A program made the translations under genes and the position numbers. DNA of 64,000 nucleotides from Patescibacteria group bacterium (GTDB lineage Bacteria > Patescibacteriota > UBA1384 > XYA2-FULL-43-10). The notes beneath the pieces were generated by a model, which ran no database searches, was not told the DNA's origin, and saw only the letters and a list, made by a program, of their open reading frames with translations. The stretch spans positions 181,032-245,031 of the forward strand of contig JBAYVT010000001.1 in NCBI GenBank assembly GCA_041674405.1. Reading direction: 5' to 3'. Of the stretch, positions 699 to 61,449 are shown in pieces. Position 1 is the first letter of the stretch. Each line of letters opens with the position of its first letter.

Positions 699-726
699 TT
701 GACATTATGTAAAGTATACTTTACAT
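699..726 (+). promoter_or_regulatory. TTGACA -35-like box (699-704) directly followed by a perfect 20-bp palindrome ATGTAAAGTATACTTTACAT (707-726) upstream of dnaK; candidate repressor operator
   Basis: Palindrome read directly from the sequence. The same 20-mer, with one central base different, occurs at 60723-60742 upstream of the HTH-Hsp20 gene. Confidence 0.55.
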
Positions 727-753
727 TTATAAAGAAGGTCAATTTGCCGGCCT

Positions 754-808
754 GGCTCCTTACCAAGGAGTTGCCTACCCCCTCCGGGCGGCTCCTTGGT
801 AAGGGGTC
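754..808 (+). promoter_or_regulatory. leader stem-loop: 15-17 bp inverted repeat GGCTCCTTACCAAGGAG / CTCCTTGGTAAGGGGTC with a 21-nt loop, in the dnaK 5' region
   Basis: Inverted repeat seen in the sequence. It lies between the putative promoter and the dnaK start at 951. Confidence 0.35.
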
Positions 809-950
809 GGGTCACCATAATCCAAAGCAGATTGGCCTTCAGCCAAACACAACCCGACTAAAGAACCAAAGAACGCAAGAACAAGTATTCAACAAAGTGG
901 TTCTTGGGTTCATTAGTCCATAAGTTCTTAAGTTTCTACGAAGGAGAAAA

Positions 951-2849
951 ATGGGTAAAATTATCGGAATTGACTTGGGTACGACAAACTCTGCCGTTGC
1001 CGTAATGGAAGGCGGAGAAGCCAAAATTATTACGACTGCCGAAGGCGGGCGCACTTGTCCATCAATTGTCGCCGAGACTAAAAAAGGCGATCGCCTCGTT
1101 GGGCAACTGGCCAAAAGGCAGGCTGTGACCAATGCAGAAAACACGATTTTTTCAGTAAAGCGCTTCATCGGCCGCAATTTTGACGACAAGGAAGCACAGG
1201 CTGACCTTAAAAAAATGCCTTACAAAACAATGAAGGCCTCCGACGGTTCAATCCGCGTTGTCATGAATGGTAAGGAATATAGCCCGCAGGAAGTTTCAGC
1301 TTTTACCTTGCAAAAATTAAAGACAGATGCCGAAACATATCTTGGCGAGAAGGTCACAGACGCCGTAATCACCGTCCCAGCCTACTTCAATGATGCACAA
1401 AGACAGGCTACCAAGGATGCGGGCAAAATCGCTGGTCTTGACGTGAAACGAATTATCAACGAACCTACTGCCGCTTCGCTTGCTTATGGCCTCGATAAGA
1501 AAAAAAATGAAAAGATCGCAGTTTATGATCTCGGTGGTGGAACTTTTGATATTACCATCCTTGAGCTCGGCGATGGCGTTTTCGAAGTCAAGGCGACCAA
1601 TGGTGACACTCATCTCGGTGGTGATGACTTCGATCAACGCATCATGGACTTTATTATCGATGAGTTCAAAAAGGATCAGGGGATCGATCTTCACTCAGAC
1701 ACGGCTGCGCTTCAGCGTATAAAAGAAGCCGCAGAAAAAGCCAAAATTGAGCTTTCTTCGACAACCGAAACTGAAATTAATCTGCCATTTATTACTGCCG
1801 ATGCTTCCGGCCCGAAGCATCTGACGATGAATATTACCCGAGCCAAACTCGAAGATATCGTCGGCGAATTAATCGAAGCAACTCTTAAGCCATGTGAAAC
1901 TGTGATGAAAGACGCCGGCGTTACCGCCAAGGATATCAATGAAGTGATTCTTGTGGGTGGTATGACCAGGATGCCTAAGGTTCGCGAAACAGTGAAAAAG
2001 TTTTTTGACAAAGAGCCAAACCATTCCGTAAACCCGGACGAGGCTGTGGCAATCGGCGCTGCAATTCAAGGTGGAATCTTGGGCGGTGAGGTTAAGGACC
2101 TTCTTCTTCTCGATGTCACTCCCCTATCTCTCGGAATTGAAACACTCGGTGGCGTGATGACCAAGCTTATAGACAAAAACACGACTATTCCGACTTCAAA
2201 ATCACAGATTTTCTCAACAGCAGCAGACAACCAGACACAAGTTGATATCCATGTCCTTCAGGGCGAGCGCGAAATGGCTGCTGACAACCGCACGCTTGGC
2301 CGATTTGTCCTCGATGGCATTCCTCCAGCTCCACGAGGCATCCCGCAAGTTGAAGTCTCCTTTGACATTGATGCTAATGGCATAGTGAATGTGAAAGCAA
2401 CGGATAAGGCCACTAACAAAGAGCAAAAAATTACAATCACCAGCTCCTCCGGCCTTTCCGACGAAGACATCGAGAAAATGAAGAAGGATGCTGAACTTCA
2501 CGCCGAAGAAGACAAGAAGAAAAAAGAACTTATTGATGCCAGAAATATGGCTGACAGCTTGATTTTCACTGCCGAGAAGACTATCAAAGATGCCGGAGAA
2601 AAAGCTGACTCGAATCTAAAGAGCGACGTTGAGAGCAAGATTGAGGCCCTAAAGGGAGTAAAAGAGAGCGACAACACAGAAGAAATCAAGACTCAAACCG
2701 AATCACTATCAAAATCGCTTCAGGAACTGGGCGCAAAGATGTACGAACAGGCTGGACCGCAACAAGCCCCTGAAAAACCGGAAAATGAAAGTAAAGATGG
2801 TGCTAGCAAAGAGGAAAAGCCAGACGACAAGGGAGAAGAAAATAAATAA
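951..2849 (+). CDS. dnaK: molecular chaperone DnaK (Hsp70)
   Basis: 632-aa protein. N-terminus [22 protein letters not shown] and other Hsp70 signatures are present along the full length. Confidence 0.97.
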
Positions 2850-2952: not shown

Positions 2953-3645
2953 ATGTTGGATATCTTCAAAAGGCCAATTACCGTCATTATCATTGTTGGG
3001 GCGATTGTGATCGCCCTTATCTGGTCATATGTTGACAAGAGAATTCAATCCAATAAGGAAGCTGCGGAAGCTAAAAAAATTACCGATGCCGCTCAGATCA
3101 TTACCAATCTTACCAATATAGATCCCAAAGATTACGATGAATTAGTGAAGGCTGAATATCAGAAAGCAGTTACGAATGCGACAGCAGCTGATCCAAATAA
3201 TGCATTTTCGGCGTTGGTGGTAGAATTGCCAGGCGACCTTGCCTTAAACTCGGGAAATGACAGATTTGTTTTTACTTCTCCGGACAATGCTGCAAATAAC
3301 TGGACCATCACATTTTCTGAGCTTACCGGCAACTTTATTCGGGCAATAATTCCCAAAAGCGATTATTTAGGGGAACTGAAGCCGGTAAATACAAACCTAT
3401 GGAAATTCCAATATGTGACGGCAATTCAAATTGCCGAACAAAATGGCGGAAAGACTTTTCGTGAAAACAATTCTTTGACCGGAGTTACACTTACCCTGAA
3501 GCACGGAGACCCGAATAATTGGCTGGCATGGACAGTCGAATACAACAGCAAGGATAATAAATTTGTAAAACAGGTTGATGCCAATTCCGGAAAAACGATT
3601 GATTCAATTTCAACTACCGGAGATCAAGCATCTTCTGTCCAGTAA
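2953..3645 (+). CDS. membrane-anchored hypothetical protein; C-terminal region resembles a PepSY domain
   Basis: N-terminal hydrophobic helix. C-terminal WTVEYNSKDNKFVKQVDANSGKTI fits the PepSY pattern. The gene sits between dnaK and the J-protein gene. Confidence 0.5.
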   Translation: MLDIFKRPITVIIIVGAIVIALIWSYVDKRIQSNKEAAEAKKITDAAQIITNLTNIDPKDYDELVKAEYQKAVTNATAADPNNAFSALVVELPGDLALNSGNDRFVFTSPDNAANNWTITFSELTGNFIRAIIPKSDYLGELKPVNTNLWKFQYVTAIQIAEQNGGKTFRENNSLTGVTLTLKHGDPNNWLAWTVEYNSKDNKFVKQVDANSGKTIDSISTTGDQASSVQ

Positions 3646-3743
3646 TTCAAATCTCAAATTTCAAATCTCAAAAATAAGGAATTAAATATTTAAATATTTG
3701 AGATGAAATTTTGACTTTTGAAATTTAAGTTTTGAGATATATC

Positions 3744-4406
3744 ATGTCCAAGGATTACTATAAAATTCTAGGAGTGGACAAGAGGGCTTCCGCCGACGAA
3801 ATCAAAAAAACATATCGGAAGCTTGCTTTGGAATGTCATCCGGATCGAGGCGGAGGAGACAAAGCGGAAGAGAAATTCAAAGAACTGAACGAAGCTTATC
3901 AAGTTCTTTCGGATTCACAGAAACGGGCACAATACGATCAATTTGGCTCAACATTCGCAGGCGGACAGGGCAGCGGTGGATTTGGCGGTTTCGATTTTGG
4001 CGGATTCCAAGGGCAAGATTTCGGTGGATTCGGTCCCGAAGGGGCCCACTTTGGGGGCTTTGGCGGCGGCGGGCTTGGCGATATATTTGATGATTTCTTT
4101 GGTGCTGCTTTTTCATCCGTGTCTGCTGAGATTGAGATTGGCCCCGCGCAAGCTGTTCTCGGTGAAAAAATTTCGATCAATGTTAGTGGTGAAAATATTG
4201 AACTAAATATCCCACCTGGCATTCAGGATGGAACTACTTTTCGGTTTCTTGGCAAGGGTCGCGCATACAACAAGTCGGGTAAGAAAGGCGATCTCAATGT
4301 GATAGTGCACATAAAAATGCCTCAAAGAATCACACCGGAGCAAAAGGAGCTATGGGAGAAGCTTAAGGAAGCCGAATCAAAGAAGAAATCTTGGTGGCAA
4401 CGCTAG
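3744..4406 (+). CDS. J-domain co-chaperone (DnaJ/CbpA-like; J domain plus G/F-rich region, no Cys-rich zinc-finger domain)
   Basis: DYYKILGV...HPD J-domain motif followed by a Gly/Phe-rich stretch. ATG at 3744 preferred over the TTG at 3732 used by the ORF track. Confidence 0.85.
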
Positions 4407-18035: not shown

Positions 18036-20108
18036 CTATTTCCGTTGCAATTTGATTGATATGTTTTTGTCAGAAATTAAGTCAAAATTAAAAGTTGCCG
18101 AATTTGTCTCCGCATTGTACTCTTGTAGATTTATCGGTACTAAATTTTCTGGAAAATGTAGCGTATAAGTAATTCTGTCGGCGTTTGCACCTGGCTGGCG
18201 TTGAAAAACAGCGGAGTAAATCAATCCATTTTGGTCAAAGTTATTTATTGGAAAAGAATAATTGATGGTAGCCTTACTTTCCTCTTTTGGTTTGGTGTTG
18301 ATCCAAAAAACCATTTCGGGATTACCCGCCTCTTCGCTTGCCCAATAGGGCTGGCCATTTTTATAGCCAGAATTGCTATTTTGCTCAAAGTTACCGACAA
18401 CCGGATCAAAATTTGTAACTTTCGAATTTGCTGGCAAAAGAACCCGTAAAAGGTTGATGTTGTATCCGTCTGGCCATTCATTCGATCCGTTATGAATGCG
18501 ATTGATGATAAGAGAATTGTTTACTATTCCATCGCTACCAATAGTGGAATCTAATGATAAATTTTCCAAAATGTTTGAGCTTGATTTGAACCCATTCAAA
18601 TTTGAATTATTAACATATAAATAATCGTTTCCCGTATTCAAGACCTTTCCGGCGATATTGTATTTTTCCAAGTCAGCCTCAATGTCTTTGTCAAAAGCGT
18701 AGAACATCATGTGCTTCTGGCTGAAAGAATCCGAGAACGTTTTAAATAAGTTTACAATTTCTGTTTTGTCGGAAAGTTTGGAAATCAAACGATCGACTAC
18801 AGCCGGCATCATATCCGCAAGCATTTTTTTGGGCTCATTTTCCTCTAGTGCACCCGATTTGTTGAAATAATCTTGGTGTACTTCTTTTTCTGTTTCCATT
18901 TCAAAATTATTTGCATCAATTATTTTCTCATAAGCCGGCAAATCAACCGGGCCAATTAATCGTAATATATCCACGAAAGCAGATGTGTCCAATTCAAACA
19001 CTCCATCAATCTTCTGTCCTGTTTCAGCTTCATAAAACCATTTAATTTTCTCAAATGCCTCGGGTCCGTCAACAGCCCATCCGGAATCCTTTAGTGCCCA
19101 TGTCCCATCTCTGACAACCCACGAAAGATCATCCGGCGGTGCAATTTTTGTTGTGGCCTCAAATGCATGATCGATTTTGTAAATATTCGTGCCAAAATCA
19201 ATTCCATTGAACTTGCCATTTTCAAAATGTGCTACCCCAAAAGAACCAAAGGACCCGCCACTTCCACCCCTAAGTTCCGCATTGTTTTGAAAAATTATCA
19301 GAAAATCACGTTTTTGCCCATCTTTTGCCGAAATCCAAGGCAAGTCTGTAGAAACAAGTTTTTGAGAAGATTCGATCGACTTTTTTGCCGAGGAAATTGC
19401 CGCTCGGGCTTTTTCTATACTATTTTTGAAGGATCCTAGCTGACCAAGATTTATTCTATTTAAAATTTTTTCACAATCCGATAATCTATCGGACGAATCT
19501 GAAATGGTTTTTGAAAATGCTTCTGACACAGCGGCAATATCAACAGCAAAATTGACGTTTTTGTCCTTTTTATCTTTAGCAAACTCTTCGGAAATTATTG
19601 CTTCCAAACTTTTTTGCGAGTCGGTAAGCGTATTTAAAATAATATTTGCTGCATCGAGCGTCATTTCCAAATTAACCGTGTCGGAATGTTTGTTGGAGAT
19701 CAAACTTAAATAACTTAAATCCTGCCCCCAAGATTGGAGATTGAGTTTTATTTCAGAAATATTTGCTCTGGCTTTTTCAGCTTCGGACAGCGCCTGATCG
19801 ATTTCGCCCTTGTTTAAGCTGGAAAACGCATTGTCTAAATAAATTTTAGTGTTTTCAACTAAGATTTCTACTTTACTTTTAGCATCAAATGCTCGGGCAA
19901 GTGAAAAAGCTAAAAGAGATGTTAAAATTGCTACAGCAATACTTCCTCGTGCAATCGCCATTTTCAGTTTATCGCTCAGAATTGGCTTCTTTTCAAAATT
20001 TTCGGAACCATGCCAAAAACCATCATCGTAGCCGTCTCTATTTTCGTAAGATACGGCAATCGGTTTTTTTCTATTAGTCCTGATTTTGATGTCGTGAATT
20101 TTCCTCAC
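18036..20108 (-). CDS. large membrane-anchored extracytoplasmic protein, DUF4012-like
   Basis: N-terminal TM helix. Motif FQNNAELRGGSGGSFGSFG recalls DUF4012. It lies next to glycosyltransferase genes. Confidence 0.5.
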   Translation of the reverse strand: MRKIHDIKIRTNRKKPIAVSYENRDGYDDGFWHGSENFEKKPILSDKLKMAIARGSIAVAILTSLLAFSLARAFDAKSKVEILVENTKIYLDNAFSSLNKGEIDQALSEAEKARANISEIKLNLQSWGQDLSYLSLISNKHSDTVNLEMTLDAANIILNTLTDSQKSLEAIISEEFAKDKKDKNVNFAVDIAAVSEAFSKTISDSSDRLSDCEKILNRINLGQLGSFKNSIEKARAAISSAKKSIESSQKLVSTDLPWISAKDGQKRDFLIIFQNNAELRGGSGGSFGSFGVAHFENGKFNGIDFGTNIYKIDHAFEATTKIAPPDDLSWVVRDGTWALKDSGWAVDGPEAFEKIKWFYEAETGQKIDGVFELDTSAFVDILRLIGPVDLPAYEKIIDANNFEMETEKEVHQDYFNKSGALEENEPKKMLADMMPAVVDRLISKLSDKTEIVNLFKTFSDSFSQKHMMFYAFDKDIEADLEKYNIAGKVLNTGNDYLYVNNSNLNGFKSSSNILENLSLDSTIGSDGIVNNSLIINRIHNGSNEWPDGYNINLLRVLLPANSKVTNFDPVVGNFEQNSNSGYKNGQPYWASEEAGNPEMVFWINTKPKEESKATINYSFPINNFDQNGLIYSAVFQRQPGANADRITYTLHFPENLVPINLQEYNAETNSATFNFDLISDKNISIKLQRK

Positions 20109-59396: not shown

Positions 59397-59657
59397 ATGA
59401 AACCAAGCGTATATATTTTAAAACTCGATGACGGAAGTTATTATATTGGATCAACTCGCGACTTAAAGAGACGCATTGCTGAACACCGGAAAGGTTTAAA
59501 AGCCAGTACAAGATTTTCTAAGAATCCCCAGATCGTATTCTTCCAGAATTTTGAAACTTATCATCAAGCTCGAATTATCGAGATAAAATTAAAATCCTAT
59601 AAAAGTCGCAAAGTGATCGAAAAAATTATTAAGGAAGGAAAAATTAACAAATTATAA
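59397..59657 (+). CDS. small GIY-YIG nuclease-domain protein
   Basis: VYILKL...GSYYIGSTRDLKRRIAEH is the GIY-YIG core. It ends 4 nt before tRNA-Val. Confidence 0.85.
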   Translation: MKPSVYILKLDDGSYYIGSTRDLKRRIAEHRKGLKASTRFSKNPQIVFFQNFETYHQARIIEIKLKSYKSRKVIEKIIKEGKINKL

Positions 59658-59661
59658 TAAT

Positions 59662-59738
59662 GGGCCCGTAGCTCAGTTGGTTAGAGCGCATCGTTGACAT
59701 CGATGAGGTCTGCAGTTCGAGTCTGCACGGGCCCACCA
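59662..59738 (+). tRNA. tRNA-Val (anticodon GAC), CCA encoded
   Basis: Manual cloverleaf: acceptor GGGCCCG/CGGGCCC, D-arm GCUC/GAGC, anticodon stem CAUCG/CGAUG with loop UUGACAU, T-arm UGCAG-UUCGAGU-CUGCA. Confidence 0.9.
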
Positions 59739-59790: not shown

Positions 59791-60663
59791 TTACTTTTTG
59801 GCTTTTTTCTTGACCGCAATTTTGGCAGCTTGTTTCGGTGCGACTTTCGGTACAGTAATAGTCAAAATTCCGTTGTCCATCTCAGCTTCGGCCTTTTCTG
59901 ATTTAACTTCGGATGGCAGTGTGAAGCTTCTAGTAAATGATCCAGTATACATTTCTTTGTGATAAAATCCCTCGTCTTTTTCTTCCTTTTCCTCTTTTTT
60001 CTCACCAGAAATTGTCATTATGTTATCGGCAACTTCAACAGTGACATCTTCCTCGGCAACTCCCGGAAGTTCGGCTTTGACTATGACAGCGTCTTTGGTT
60101 TCTTTTACATTGATTTTCGGCATTCCGCCAGCCTTGGCTGGGGTGACAACGCTTTCCTCAAAAAGACGATCCATTGCATCACGGAGAGTAACCATTTCTC
60201 CGAAAGGGCGCCACGGCCCAATTTCTCTTGGCATAGAATTCTCCTTTACCCCGAGCCTGTCGAGGGGTTTACCCACCTCATCGAGCCTGTCGAGGGGTTT
60301 ACCCACCTCATCGAGCCTGTCGAGGGGTTTACCCACCTCATCGAGCCTGCCGAGGAGTCTCTCGTCCTCAATTTGTCCGAGTTGCCCAGCAGTTGCGGGG
60401 TTATGATTAATAATTTTTATTGGTGAATTATTTTCAAACATTTGATTAATTTCTTTTTCAAAATCAAATATTTCCTCAAATGCAGAATTGAAAAAATTGC
60501 ACATCGATACAACAAGGGGTAGTGATGGCATATATTTCCCCTGCTCAAGAGCGATCACAGACTGCCGGGAAATACCCAGAGCTTCGGCCAGTTCCTCTTG
60601 TGAAAGATCGTGTTGGCGACGAAGTTCGCGCAATCTGTTTTGAATGTTTGGTTCTTCTTTCAT
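59791..60663 (-). CDS. fusion protein: N-terminal XRE/Cro-type HTH DNA-binding domain plus repeat linker plus C-terminal small heat-shock protein (alpha-crystallin/Hsp20) domain
   Basis: HTH: LRELRRQHDLSQEELAEALGISRQSVIALEQGK. Linker: LDEVGKPLDR x3.5. ACD: INVKETKDAVIVKAELPGV...GILTITVPK. Confidence 0.85.
   Translation of the reverse strand: MKEEPNIQNRLRELRRQHDLSQEELAEALGISRQSVIALEQGKYMPSLPLVVSMCNFFNSAFEEIFDFEKEINQMFENNSPIKIINHNPATAGQLGQIEDERLLGRLDEVGKPLDRLDEVGKPLDRLDEVGKPLDRLGVKENSMPREIGPWRPFGEMVTLRDAMDRLFEESVVTPAKAGGMPKINVKETKDAVIVKAELPGVAEEDVTVEVADNIMTISGEKKEEKEEKDEGFYHKEMYTGSFTRSFTLPSEVKSEKAEAEMDNGILTITVPKVAPKQAAKIAVKKKAKK
60251..60356. repeat. perfect in-frame 30-bp tandem repeat (3.5 copies; TCGAGCCTGTCGAGGGGTTTACCCACCTCA) inside the HTH-Hsp20 gene
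   Basis: Copies at 60251, 60281, 60311 and a partial one at 60341. Copies 2 and 3 are identical. Confidence 0.9.
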
Positions 60664-60720
60664 AATTTTTTACTCATCAGTGATGGAATTCTGTGAAAGA
60701 TCCTTGTGGTTAAATTTCAT

Positions 60721-60757
60721 TGATGTAAAGTTTACTTTACATCATGATCTTTGTCAA
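60721..60757 (-). promoter_or_regulatory. promoter TTGACA-17-TAAACT (minus strand) whose -10 is embedded in a 24-bp palindrome TGATGTAAAGTTTACTTTACATCA (60721-60744); candidate autoregulatory operator of the HTH-Hsp20 gene
   Basis: Seen in the sequence. The core 20-mer equals the dnaK-upstream palindrome (707-726) except for one central base. Confidence 0.6.
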
Positions 60758-60849: not shown

Positions 60850-61449
60850 TTATAGGTTATCTTTCCCATAGAGAAATATCTTTGTTTTTTTGCCCAAATT
60901 GAAGGTTTTAGCTGATTTTATGAATATGTGCTCGGTGAATGTAAAAGACAGCGAAACGACCCTGGCATCCTCTTTGATTGCTGCAAAAAACCATGGCTCG
61001 ATAGCAGTAAGAACCTTATTGAGCAAATATAGATATACTACATTAGCATGGCCTAAATGTTTTTTTGCTTTTTTAAAATCACCAAAAATTATTTTGATGT
61101 TTTTGCTCTCTCCGGCAAGAAATACGTTCCATCTTGATTTTAAAAAGCAGTAAGGCGAAATTTCTACCCCCACTCCTTTGGCTCCAAATATTCTGGCAGC
61201 AATTATTAAGCTCCTTGCGTTGCCACAACCGAGATCAACAACCAATTCGCCGCTTTTTAACTTGGCCAATTTGAATGCATCGATTATAGCTTGATCAGAA
61301 GCATATACCGTAGGCGCACTAAAAATCGCTGCAAACAAAAGCGATCCCTGCCAAAAGCAAAGTACAAAAGAAATAACTAAAAATATTATCAAAAATGCTG
61401 TCTGCATATTTACATGCGAATTATACCCGATCCAATGTGACGAGCTCAA
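60850..61449 (-). CDS. class I SAM-dependent methyltransferase with an N-terminal membrane anchor (start uncertain: 61449 or about 61407)
   Basis: Motif I VVDLGCGNA. Confidence 0.65.
   Translation of the reverse strand: MSSSHWIGYNSHVNMQTAFLIIFLVISFVLCFWQGSLLFAAIFSAPTVYASDQAIIDAFKLAKLKSGELVVDLGCGNARSLIIAARIFGAKGVGVEISPYCFLKSRWNVFLAGESKNIKIIFGDFKKAKKHLGHANVVYLYLLNKVLTAIEPWFFAAIKEDARVVSLSFTFTEHIFIKSAKTFNLGKKTKIFLYGKDNL

Follow-up and report, generated by a model that had tools for sequence, protein, structure and literature searches.

An XRE-type helix-turn-helix protein fused to a small heat-shock protein as a probable repressor of chaperone genes in Berkelbacteria-like Patescibacteria

The 64-kb stretch of DNA analysed here (64,000 nucleotides from a Patescibacteria group bacterium, hereafter the window) carries on its minus strand, at 59791–60663, an open reading frame (ORF) with an ATG start that encodes 290 amino acids (aa), in which a helix-turn-helix (HTH) domain, a linker and an sHSP (small heat-shock protein) follow one another, and which is proposed to act as a repressor of chaperone genes. 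The HTH is of the XRE/Cro-C1 type, occupies residues 11–64 (60472–60633, minus strand) and scores 53.3 bits against a cut-off of 23 with Pfam HTH_3 (E 2.8e-14). The alpha-crystallin domain, at residues 186–283 (59815–60108, minus strand), scores 82.5 bits against a cut-off of 20.8 with Pfam HSP20 (E 2.6e-23). An earlier note on this DNA, made from its letters alone, had read both domains in a single polypeptide, and the Pfam scores, well above both cut-offs, bear this out. The same note had delimited an alpha-crystallin domain at about residues 160–275; this domain is present, although what lies there is, judging from the comparisons below, a whole sHSP that begins at about residue 144 and not the domain alone.

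This extent can be deduced because an N-terminal arm, a C-terminal I-x-I-type motif and matches to stand-alone sHSPs together cover residues 144–290. The arm, recognized in an alignment of 35 family sequences, spans residues 148–175 approximately (60139–60222, minus strand) and runs from GPWRPF to LRDAMDRLFEES, and the sHSP oligomerisation motif I-x-V is found at the opposite end as I282-A283-V284 (59812–59820, minus strand). The translation also contains the DNGILTITVPK string. Among solved chains, those closest to residues 144–290 are pea Hsp18.1 and wheat Hsp16.9 (E ~1e-21), and identities of 41–53% are reached with stand-alone sHSPs of 145–160 aa, mostly from Chloroflexota, whose residue 2 (e.g., in P0148) aligns to fusion residue 146, placing their start at the position of Met144. 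The NCBIfam models Hsp18, Hsp14 and Hsp20 align from residue 160 onwards, and none of the specific NCBIfam sHSP family models matches the fusion protein above its own cut-off. The fold assignment relies on these profile matches and on sequence matches to Protein Data Bank chains, since the AlphaFold2 model built from the 35-sequence alignment was too poor for a fold search: its confidence (pLDDT) is around 88 in the HTH and 50 in the alpha-crystallin domain, and falls below 50 over residues 85–137 of the linker, which is modelled as disordered.

The fusion is not a one-off and, as far as can be judged from sequence, constitutes a conserved family in Berkelbacteria and related Patescibacteria. 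A protein search with the fusion protein returned 1582 matches, the top 120 of which are all full-length proteins of 230–310 aa with both domains, originate from metagenome-assembled genomes of Patescibacteria and Berkelbacteria, and bear no database name other than "Hsp20 family protein"; moreover, once a library had been clustered at 50% identity, a match in two parts, HTH and sHSP, was obtained for about 60 of the 150 best representatives. Within the 35-sequence alignment the HTH is very conserved, the linker varies in length and sequence, and conservation returns beyond it, first in the arm with its PWRPFRE-VSLRDAMDRLFEDSVITP, then in the alpha-crystallin domain and lastly in a K-[IV]-x-[IV]-K at the C-terminus, the equivalent of the sHSP I-x-I motif. 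Twelve positions of the arm are invariant (P150, P153, L160, R161, D162, A163, M164, D165, R166, L167, E169 and S171), so that the arm appears unusually conserved for an sHSP N-terminus. The reading frame stays open through the poorly conserved linker in every member, and thus HTH and sHSP are not simply two adjacent genes. In the window, the variable linker includes a 30-bp tandem repeat in 3.5 copies detected by TRF, with LDEVGKPLDR as the unit (60252–60355, minus strand). The relative P0002 (locus L202), of 270 aa and otherwise near-identical, has fewer of these repeat units, which accounts for the 20 additional residues of the window protein, and the promoters of both loci are identical over the 220 nt aligned. 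Shortened members of the family also occur, namely L086 (190 aa), L138 (142 aa), L104 (167 aa) and L044, in which the HTH is followed by an alpha-crystallin domain that is truncated or lacks the arm. In the search of representatives, P0132 (1002 aa), P0146 (703 aa) and P0208 (484 aa) each matched the query in 4 to 11 separate places, with the top-scoring match falling on the HTH, and these proteins may be multi-HTH arrays.

Upstream of the fusion gene lies a promoter with 10 of the 12 consensus positions (60729–60757, minus strand), composed of a -35 element TTGACA (60757–60752), a 17-nt spacer and a -10 element TAAACT (60734–60729). It is overlapped by the 24-bp palindrome TGATGTAAAGTTTACTTTACATCA at 60721–60744, hereafter the operator, whose core TGTAAAG-N4-CTTTACA falls at 60724–60741. 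The earlier note had described this same arrangement, and the -10 element does sit at the centre of the palindrome. The promoter is identical in the related loci L202 and L203. When the whole window was scanned allowing up to 3 mismatches, only two matches to the operator were found, at the fusion promoter and at the dnaK promoter, and 0.03 would be expected. The association extends to the relatives: in 48 loci carrying the full fusion, with one genome per species scanned, the exact sequence TGTAAAG-N4-CTTTACA is found upstream of the fusion gene in 46, and the remaining 2 differ by one mismatch. In the 46 loci, 12–235 nt separate it from the tblastn match of the fusion protein downstream, and the layout is almost always TTGACA-N2/3-operator. 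Base composition predicts 0.006 exact sites by chance in the 633 kb covered by these loci, in which only one additional exact operator was found. This extra site, at 19372–19389 of L038, has neither a TTGACA element nor an obvious downstream ORF, and is treated as unexplained or due to chance.

The family consensus of promoter and operator, cTTGACAaaATGTAAAGnnnnCTTTACATt, has the operator filling the spacer and its right end serving as the -10 element (TACAtT). The window promoter is atypical in this respect, since a 7-bp insertion displaces the palindrome relative to the -35 element and, as a consequence, the palindrome centre TAAACT serves as -10. In fusion loci whose mRNA is predicted to be leaderless, the operator spans about -27 to -9. 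An operator preceding the gene of its presumed reader in 48 of 48 genomes, with no more than one mismatch in any of them, is the usual signature of autoregulation, and in this sense the autoregulatory role put forward in the earlier note is favoured by the sequence comparison.

The second site of the window belongs to the promoter of dnaK (699–727, plus strand), identified by sequence match and formed by the -35 element TTGACA (699–704), the operator ATGTAAAGTATACTTTACAT (707–726) and the -10 element TACATT (722–727), located inside the right half-site. This operator lies 225 nt upstream of dnaK (951–2849, plus strand), a regulon member recognized by its translation and by homologues in Berkelbacteria and Patescibacteria with 80–89% identity. 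The claim that dnaK carries the same operator as the fusion gene is therefore right regarding the existence of the site and too broad regarding its extent, as the two sites share a 20-bp core and not the full 24 bp. To sample dnaK blindly with respect to the operator, 7 loci were picked by DnaK similarity alone (the homologues of 80–89% identity), and the exact promoter-operator was found in all 7, at 76–285 nt upstream of dnaK. One of these dnaK loci (L210) and the fusion locus L011 come from the same assembly, the window likewise holds both sites, and DnaK sequences are also on record for the metagenome-assembled genomes of the fusion loci L008, L019, L024 and L032.

A metagenome scan with the pattern TTGACA-N3-TGTAAAG-N4-CTTTACA returned at least 120 contigs and, among the matches listed, 110 interpretable sites. 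At least 24 of these sites precede a fusion gene, at least 23 precede dnaK (three with grpE first), at least 12 groES-groEL, and at least one a clp ATPase gene (Clp_N, AAA_2, ClpB_D2-small), with at least about 47 preceding small HTH genes and/or operons of DUF2178-like membrane proteins and at least 3 preceding other genes. The chaperone and fusion sites are mostly found on contigs of low G+C content, where DnaK is 66–93% identical to that of the window, among the matches listed. The fusion gene of L086 and that of L060 each have a clp ATPase gene immediately behind them. Within the 10-kb flanks of the 48 fusion loci, no dnaK, groEL or clp gene without an operator was found, except for the clp gene directly downstream of the fusion gene in L060. 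In line with the earlier expectation that the operator would recur at heat-shock promoters of relatives, it is found at all 7 dnaK loci and also ahead of groES-groEL, grpE-dnaK and clp ATPase genes. A single low-G+C target among the matches listed is not a classical chaperone gene, namely a gene for a 95-aa DUF3467 protein preceded by the operator in the metagenome locus L088.

Regarding the operators of the established heat-shock repressors, CIRCE (up to 3 mismatches) was found neither in the window nor in any Patescibacteria locus, appearing only by Chloroflexota sHSP genes, HAIR (up to 1 mismatch) was absent from 1.79 Mb of loci, and the CtsR operator gave only scattered matches with 2 mismatches in these loci, none of them at chaperone promoters. 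Similarly, no HrcA or CtsR model appears among the Pfam and NCBIfam matches of the fusion protein, whose HTH is XRE-type and not MerR-type, and which is not a homologue of HrcA, HspR or CtsR according to these databases. The separation from HrcA/CIRCE, HspR/HAIR and CtsR drawn in the earlier note therefore holds. Given the operator-blind dnaK loci, the metagenome sites and the lack of CIRCE and HAIR, the palindrome in this lineage singles out dnaK, groESL and clp along with the fusion gene, a set of targets that elsewhere belongs classically to HrcA, HspR and CtsR.

These comparisons also bear on whether the palindrome is a protein site at all. It could instead be an RNA hairpin or terminator belonging to the minus-strand gene situated upstream (60850–61449), and a terminator scan does flag it on the plus strand, as a 10-pair stem with 3 G-C pairs and TGATCTTTGT behind it. 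However, the stem is A+T-rich, no T-run follows the palindrome on the strand of the upstream gene, and in many genomes the palindrome is joined to TTGACA at a constant spacing ahead of dnaK, groES and the fusion gene, irrespective of the genes nearby. The terminator reading, contradicted by this fixed spacing across genomes, is rejected and retains only a negligible probability.

The protein that reads this operator is likely the fused HTH itself, since the operator is nearly universal at the promoter of its own gene, the domain is homologous to a DNA-binding repressor with a comparable site, the operator flank covaries with the HTH subfamily, and no second HTH of this type occurs in the window. 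In a phmmer search, the closest solved chains were those of a 65-aa regulator from the PbsX family, 9k3w (E 1e-13), and of the Enterococcus faecalis protein CylR2, 1utx (E 4e-10), the latter over residues 8–70; this match spans the whole domain of about 65 residues, including its C-terminal dimer-forming part, with the SRQ(S/T)I and PSL-L motifs in common. This CylR2 lineage had gone unnoticed in the earlier note, as had the probable free sHSP discussed below. The cyl promoter region, taken from a plasmid record, reads TTTTGTCAAGTG-T-CACTTGACAAAA, with a related half-site TGTCAAG and a spacing of N5 versus N4 in the fusion operator. As for the flanking bases of the operator, fusion proteins with an LSQEEL/PSLPL HTH are associated with A...T in 46 of 48 cases and those with an LTQGEL/PSVALA HTH with T...A (5), A...A (4) or G...A (1), a covariation that is suggestive and not independent of phylogeny.

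The same promoter-operator is also used outside the fusion family. In at least about 47 metagenome loci (between L087 and L199), TTGACA-N3-TGTAAAG-N4-CTTTACA is followed by one to three DUF2178-like membrane-protein genes and then by a gene for a CylR2-like HTH of 65–80 aa. The G+C content of these contigs ranges from 0.28 to 0.69, and for this reason they are considered to come mostly from other phyla. Among the matches listed, their small HTHs are 36–55% identical to residues 3–74 of the fusion protein. These operons look like a widespread module akin to CylR1/CylR2 that shares its DNA specificity with the fusion; the likeness to CylR1, for which there is no Pfam match, is limited to the gene arrangement. 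Their existence raises the alternative that another protein, for instance a small stand-alone CylR2-like HTH, reads the operator, and that the fusion is a mere member of the heat-shock regulon that happens to carry an HTH. Small HTHs of the same lineage do share this operator on many metagenome contigs, including a few low in G+C (L096, L142 and L156). Nevertheless, the window holds neither a second HTH of the fusion's type nor a second sHSP, the operator precedes the fusion gene in all 48 genomes (46 of them exactly) and its flank follows the fused HTH subfamily, whereas the small HTHs reside in their own DUF2178-like operons, mostly on high-G+C contigs of other phyla among the matches listed. 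A reader other than the fusion protein is accordingly deemed very improbable.

Besides its fusion product, the gene probably encodes a free sHSP. An internal Shine-Dalgarno (SD) sequence, AAGGAG (60241–60246, minus strand), lies 6 nt upstream of the internal ATG (60234–60232) that encodes Met144, from which a putative short isoform of 147 aa would be produced (59791–60234, minus strand). Met144 is invariant in the 35-sequence alignment. Among 57 distinct fusion genes with a recognisable arm, an SD-like match of at least 4 nt precedes the equivalent ATG in all 57, one of at least 5 nt in 53 and one of at least 6 nt in 42, compared with a background of 25%, 7.1% and 1.6%, respectively, computed over all codon positions of the same ORFs. 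The internal SD is kept even where the residues it encodes differ (KE, GG, RE, TE or EEV), which places the constraint on the nucleotides and not on the residues. The predicted short products measure 143–161 aa across the family, a normal sHSP size. Regarding the long form, 63 distinct promoters were compared: the distance from the -10 element to its ATG is 5–9 nt in 32 of them and exactly 6 nt in 25, so that the A of the ATG falls on the expected transcription start and the mRNA would be leaderless. In 25 promoters the leader exceeds 20 nt, and 13 of these have no SD; the window gene is of this kind, with a leader of about 60 nt and no SD for the long form. Translation of the long form thus seems to be leaderless in about half of the family and to lack a good SD in most other members, so that its start signals are weak. 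These features suggest that a single transcript yields little HTH-sHSP and plenty of free sHSP, with surfaces for assembly and client binding in common, and that both isoforms are made is considered highly probable.

The reading preferred here, to which a probability of roughly 0.7 is assigned on the basis of sequence data, is that the fusion is the chaperone-regulon repressor of Berkelbacteria-like Patescibacteria, joined to an sHSP and thereby equipped with built-in chaperone titration. Its first component, an autoregulated repressor of the chaperone regulon, is taken to be very probable, and for the second, the sHSP module as the sensor in the way originally proposed, the odds appear even. 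Mechanistically, the CylR2-like HTH would bind the 7-4-7 palindrome TGTAAAG-N4-CTTTACA by analogy with its homologues, and would do so as a dimer, as the centres of the half-sites are 11 bp apart. Once bound, the protein would block the access of RNA polymerase to the promoters that serve dnaK (with grpE and dnaJ), groES-groEL, clp ATPase genes and its own gene, because the operator covers the spacer and the -10 element. The single mRNA would supply little of the long form and much free sHSP, and both isoforms, alike in arm, alpha-crystallin domain and I-x-V motif, would co-assemble and bind the same clients. Under heat or proteotoxic stress, the sHSP module may be drawn into sHSP–client assemblies or shift its oligomeric state; the HTH would then vacate the operators and the regulon would be induced. 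Finally, clearance of clients by free sHSP, DnaK and Clp/GroEL could return the long form to the DNA and shut the response off. At its most complete, the proposal would make one gene a full proteostasis loop, in which the long isoform senses the load of unfolded proteins directly and adjusts accordingly how far the promoters of dnaK, groESL, clp and the fusion gene itself are occupied, and the short one, as the bulk chaperone, buffers clients and sets the shut-off; this full version is held only tentatively, at somewhat worse than even odds.

Several points weigh against this interpretation. Binding, repression, heat induction and the existence of two products are all deduced from sequence. 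The metagenome scan was conditioned on TTGACA and exact half-sites, and its proportions are consequently not unbiased, and the sampling independent of the operator concerns dnaK only, at 7 loci. The AlphaFold2 monomer model, with a mean pLDDT of 57, is poor outside the HTH and silent on how the two domains interact. The free sHSP could act either way, as a competitor for clients or as a partner that inactivates the repressor. Moreover, CylR2-type HTHs dimerise on their own and do not need the sHSP for this purpose, which leaves room for a sensor role without proving it.

An obvious alternative retains the chaperone-regulon repressor but restricts the sHSP to oligomerisation or stability, the signal being sensed elsewhere, either through a heat-labile HTH or whole protein (RheA, CtsR and certain HrcA proteins being of this kind) or through a chaperone co-repressor, as DnaK for HspR and GroEL for HrcA. 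The evidence from operator and regulon is equal for both interpretations. CylR2 is a marginally stable dimer that has been used in studies of temperature-dependent unfolding, and the many entries for CylR2 solved by nuclear magnetic resonance (NMR) are in keeping with such work; in addition, the presence of dnaK, groESL and clp in the regulon makes chaperone feedback possible. On the other hand, a passive scaffold would need neither a complete sHSP nor a free one, whereas the family has kept the complete sHSP, including the I-x-V motif and an arm conserved beyond usual sHSP N-termini, and every member has kept the predicted co-produced free sHSP. Moreover, HTHs of the CylR2 type already dimerise unaided. 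Sensing elsewhere is therefore judged unlikely, though it is the most serious competitor of a sensory sHSP. Still less credit is given to the idea that the fusion is a DNA-tethered chaperone guarding the nucleoid or the transcription machinery, or an activator and not a repressor. It would account for the full sHSP, and the short isoform would be an ordinary chaperone; however, the protein is associated with a specific conserved palindrome that occurs essentially once per 10–20-kb locus and not with DNA in general, and this palindrome overlaps the spacer and the -10 element (at the above-mentioned position of about -27 to -9 in leaderless members), which is where a repressor would be expected. 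This possibility is regarded as very improbable.

Compared with known systems, a repressor that includes a chaperone as its sensor would combine features that are found apart elsewhere. HspR, acting at HAIR, and HrcA, acting at CIRCE, are repressors of dnaK, clpB and groESL promoters that take part in a negative feedback loop involving chaperones. The logic proposed for the fusion is the same, although the fusion belongs to neither family: these are unrelated proteins (HspR is of the MerR type) with other operators, and the chaperones act on them in trans, DnaK on HspR and GroEL on HrcA. For heat-shock repressors of the HspR and HrcA types, see also PMC6032397. CylR2 is a small homodimeric repressor that binds a palindrome overlapping the cytolysin promoter, and its signal is thought to arrive via the membrane protein CylR1 (PMC3709268). 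Fusion and CylR2 have the HTH lineage and a promoter-overlapping palindrome in common, but CylR2 has 66 aa, no sensor domain and a toxin operon as its target, in contrast to the 290 aa, the fused sHSP and the chaperone targets of the fusion, and the spacing of the half-sites is N5 at cyl and N4 at the fusion operator. The format of CylR2, a stand-alone HTH with a small membrane partner, has no counterpart in the fusion in either respect. Likewise, the DUF2178-like/small-HTH operons resemble the fusion loci in an identical promoter-operator, TTGACA-N3-TGTAAAG-N4-CTTTACA, and a homologous HTH, but differ in that they have no sHSP and no chaperone targets, and in that the HTH gene comes after one to three membrane-protein genes.

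Regarding the link between a repressor and an sHSP, RheA of Streptomyces albus is an autoregulated repressor of the sHSP gene hsp18 and an intrinsic thermosensor. RheA and Hsp18 are encoded by separate, divergently transcribed genes, and the regulon consists of the sHSP only; RheA is not reported to contain an alpha-crystallin domain. Both systems associate an autoregulated repressor with an sHSP gene, but in the fusion the two are joined in one protein. A precedent for an sHSP acting on gene expression is IbpA of E. coli, which represses the translation of its own mRNA and of rpoH in a negative feedback that contributes to heat-shock shut-off (PMC10410725; bioRxiv 10.1101/2020.04.20.050740), and which is considered an aggregation sensor, i.e., an sHSP that represses gene expression (PMC10410725; PMC10474464; bioRxiv 10.1101/2020.04.20.050740). 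IbpA thus offers a precedent for a titratable sHSP repressor, though at the level of translation: it acts on mRNA through its own surface, in a sigma-32 system and with no DNA-binding domain, whereas the fusion would act at promoters through its HTH. Residues 144–290 of the fusion correspond to canonical sHSPs such as wheat Hsp16.9, pea Hsp18.1 and those of Chloroflexota, to which the long isoform adds the N-terminal HTH and the linker.

Consistent with the earlier statement that this architecture was not known as a characterised regulator, no description of an HTH-sHSP regulator, its operator or heat-shock control in Patescibacteria was found in the literature, in searches that reached few subscription journals and are no proof of absence, and a 2021 review of bacterial sHSPs mentions neither DNA binding nor fusions. 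What would be new is the sensor design in a repressor of the chaperone regulon, together with the two isoforms of its gene, built from known elements, i.e., the repressor logic, an HTH of the CylR2 lineage and the sHSP fold. As far as we know, the well-studied bacterial heat-shock repressors all sense stress intrinsically or via chaperones in trans. If the proposal is true, the fusion would be the first transcription factor with a chaperone domain in cis as its sensor, replacing HrcA, HspR, CtsR or sigma-32 in a reduced genome. No description of chaperone control in the Candidate Phyla Radiation was found, and the data point to a regulator, an operator and a regulon for one large lineage. In addition, with repressor and sHSP linked covalently, the idea of chaperone titration could be put to the test using a single purified protein and a DNA of 20 bp. 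From one gene, a long form that is leaderless and a short form that depends on an SD could set the ratio of regulator to effector, a point of interest for organisms with reduced genomes and for synthetic stress sensors. Finally, the common operator ties the fusion to the widespread and unstudied modules of small CylR2-like HTHs and membrane proteins.

Other features of the window concern the dnaK operon and the surroundings of the fusion gene. Between the operator and the ATG of dnaK, the leader (745–818, plus strand) contains a conserved outer stem and a long hairpin whose apical loop, CCCCCUCC (778–785), is invariant and anti-SD-like; GGYCAYCA comes next. This element occurs in the closest relatives (L184, L205, L206, L208, L209 and L210) and is absent from the more distant dnaK leaders as well as from those of groESL and the fusion gene. 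RNAalifold predicts 18 pairs for it from 7 sequences, 12 of them with compensatory changes, and no Rfam match was found in the leader. It may be an RNA thermometer or another form of translational control, adding a second layer of regulation on dnaK. Downstream of dnaK, a gene for a membrane-anchored protein of 230 aa with no Pfam match (2953–3645, plus strand) precedes dnaJ (3732–4406, plus strand; Pfam DnaJ and DnaJ_C). It is a conserved member of the operon: most of the related dnaK loci retrieved encode, after dnaK and before dnaJ, a protein of 205–230 aa that is likewise anchored in the membrane by its N-terminus and matches nothing in Pfam; the window protein is 43% identical to its counterpart in L205, and the gene order recurs in L204–L210. 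In relatives, grpE is situated upstream of the operator instead. The fusion gene has as neighbours a tRNA-Val gene, a gene for a GIY-YIG protein, a 199-aa ORF and an acetyltransferase gene, and appears to be monocistronic in the window. Directly downstream of it, on the opposite strand, lie tRNA-Val(GAC) (59662–59738, plus strand) and the gene for the small GIY-YIG protein (59397–59657, plus strand), a neighbourhood that is kept in L202 and L203.

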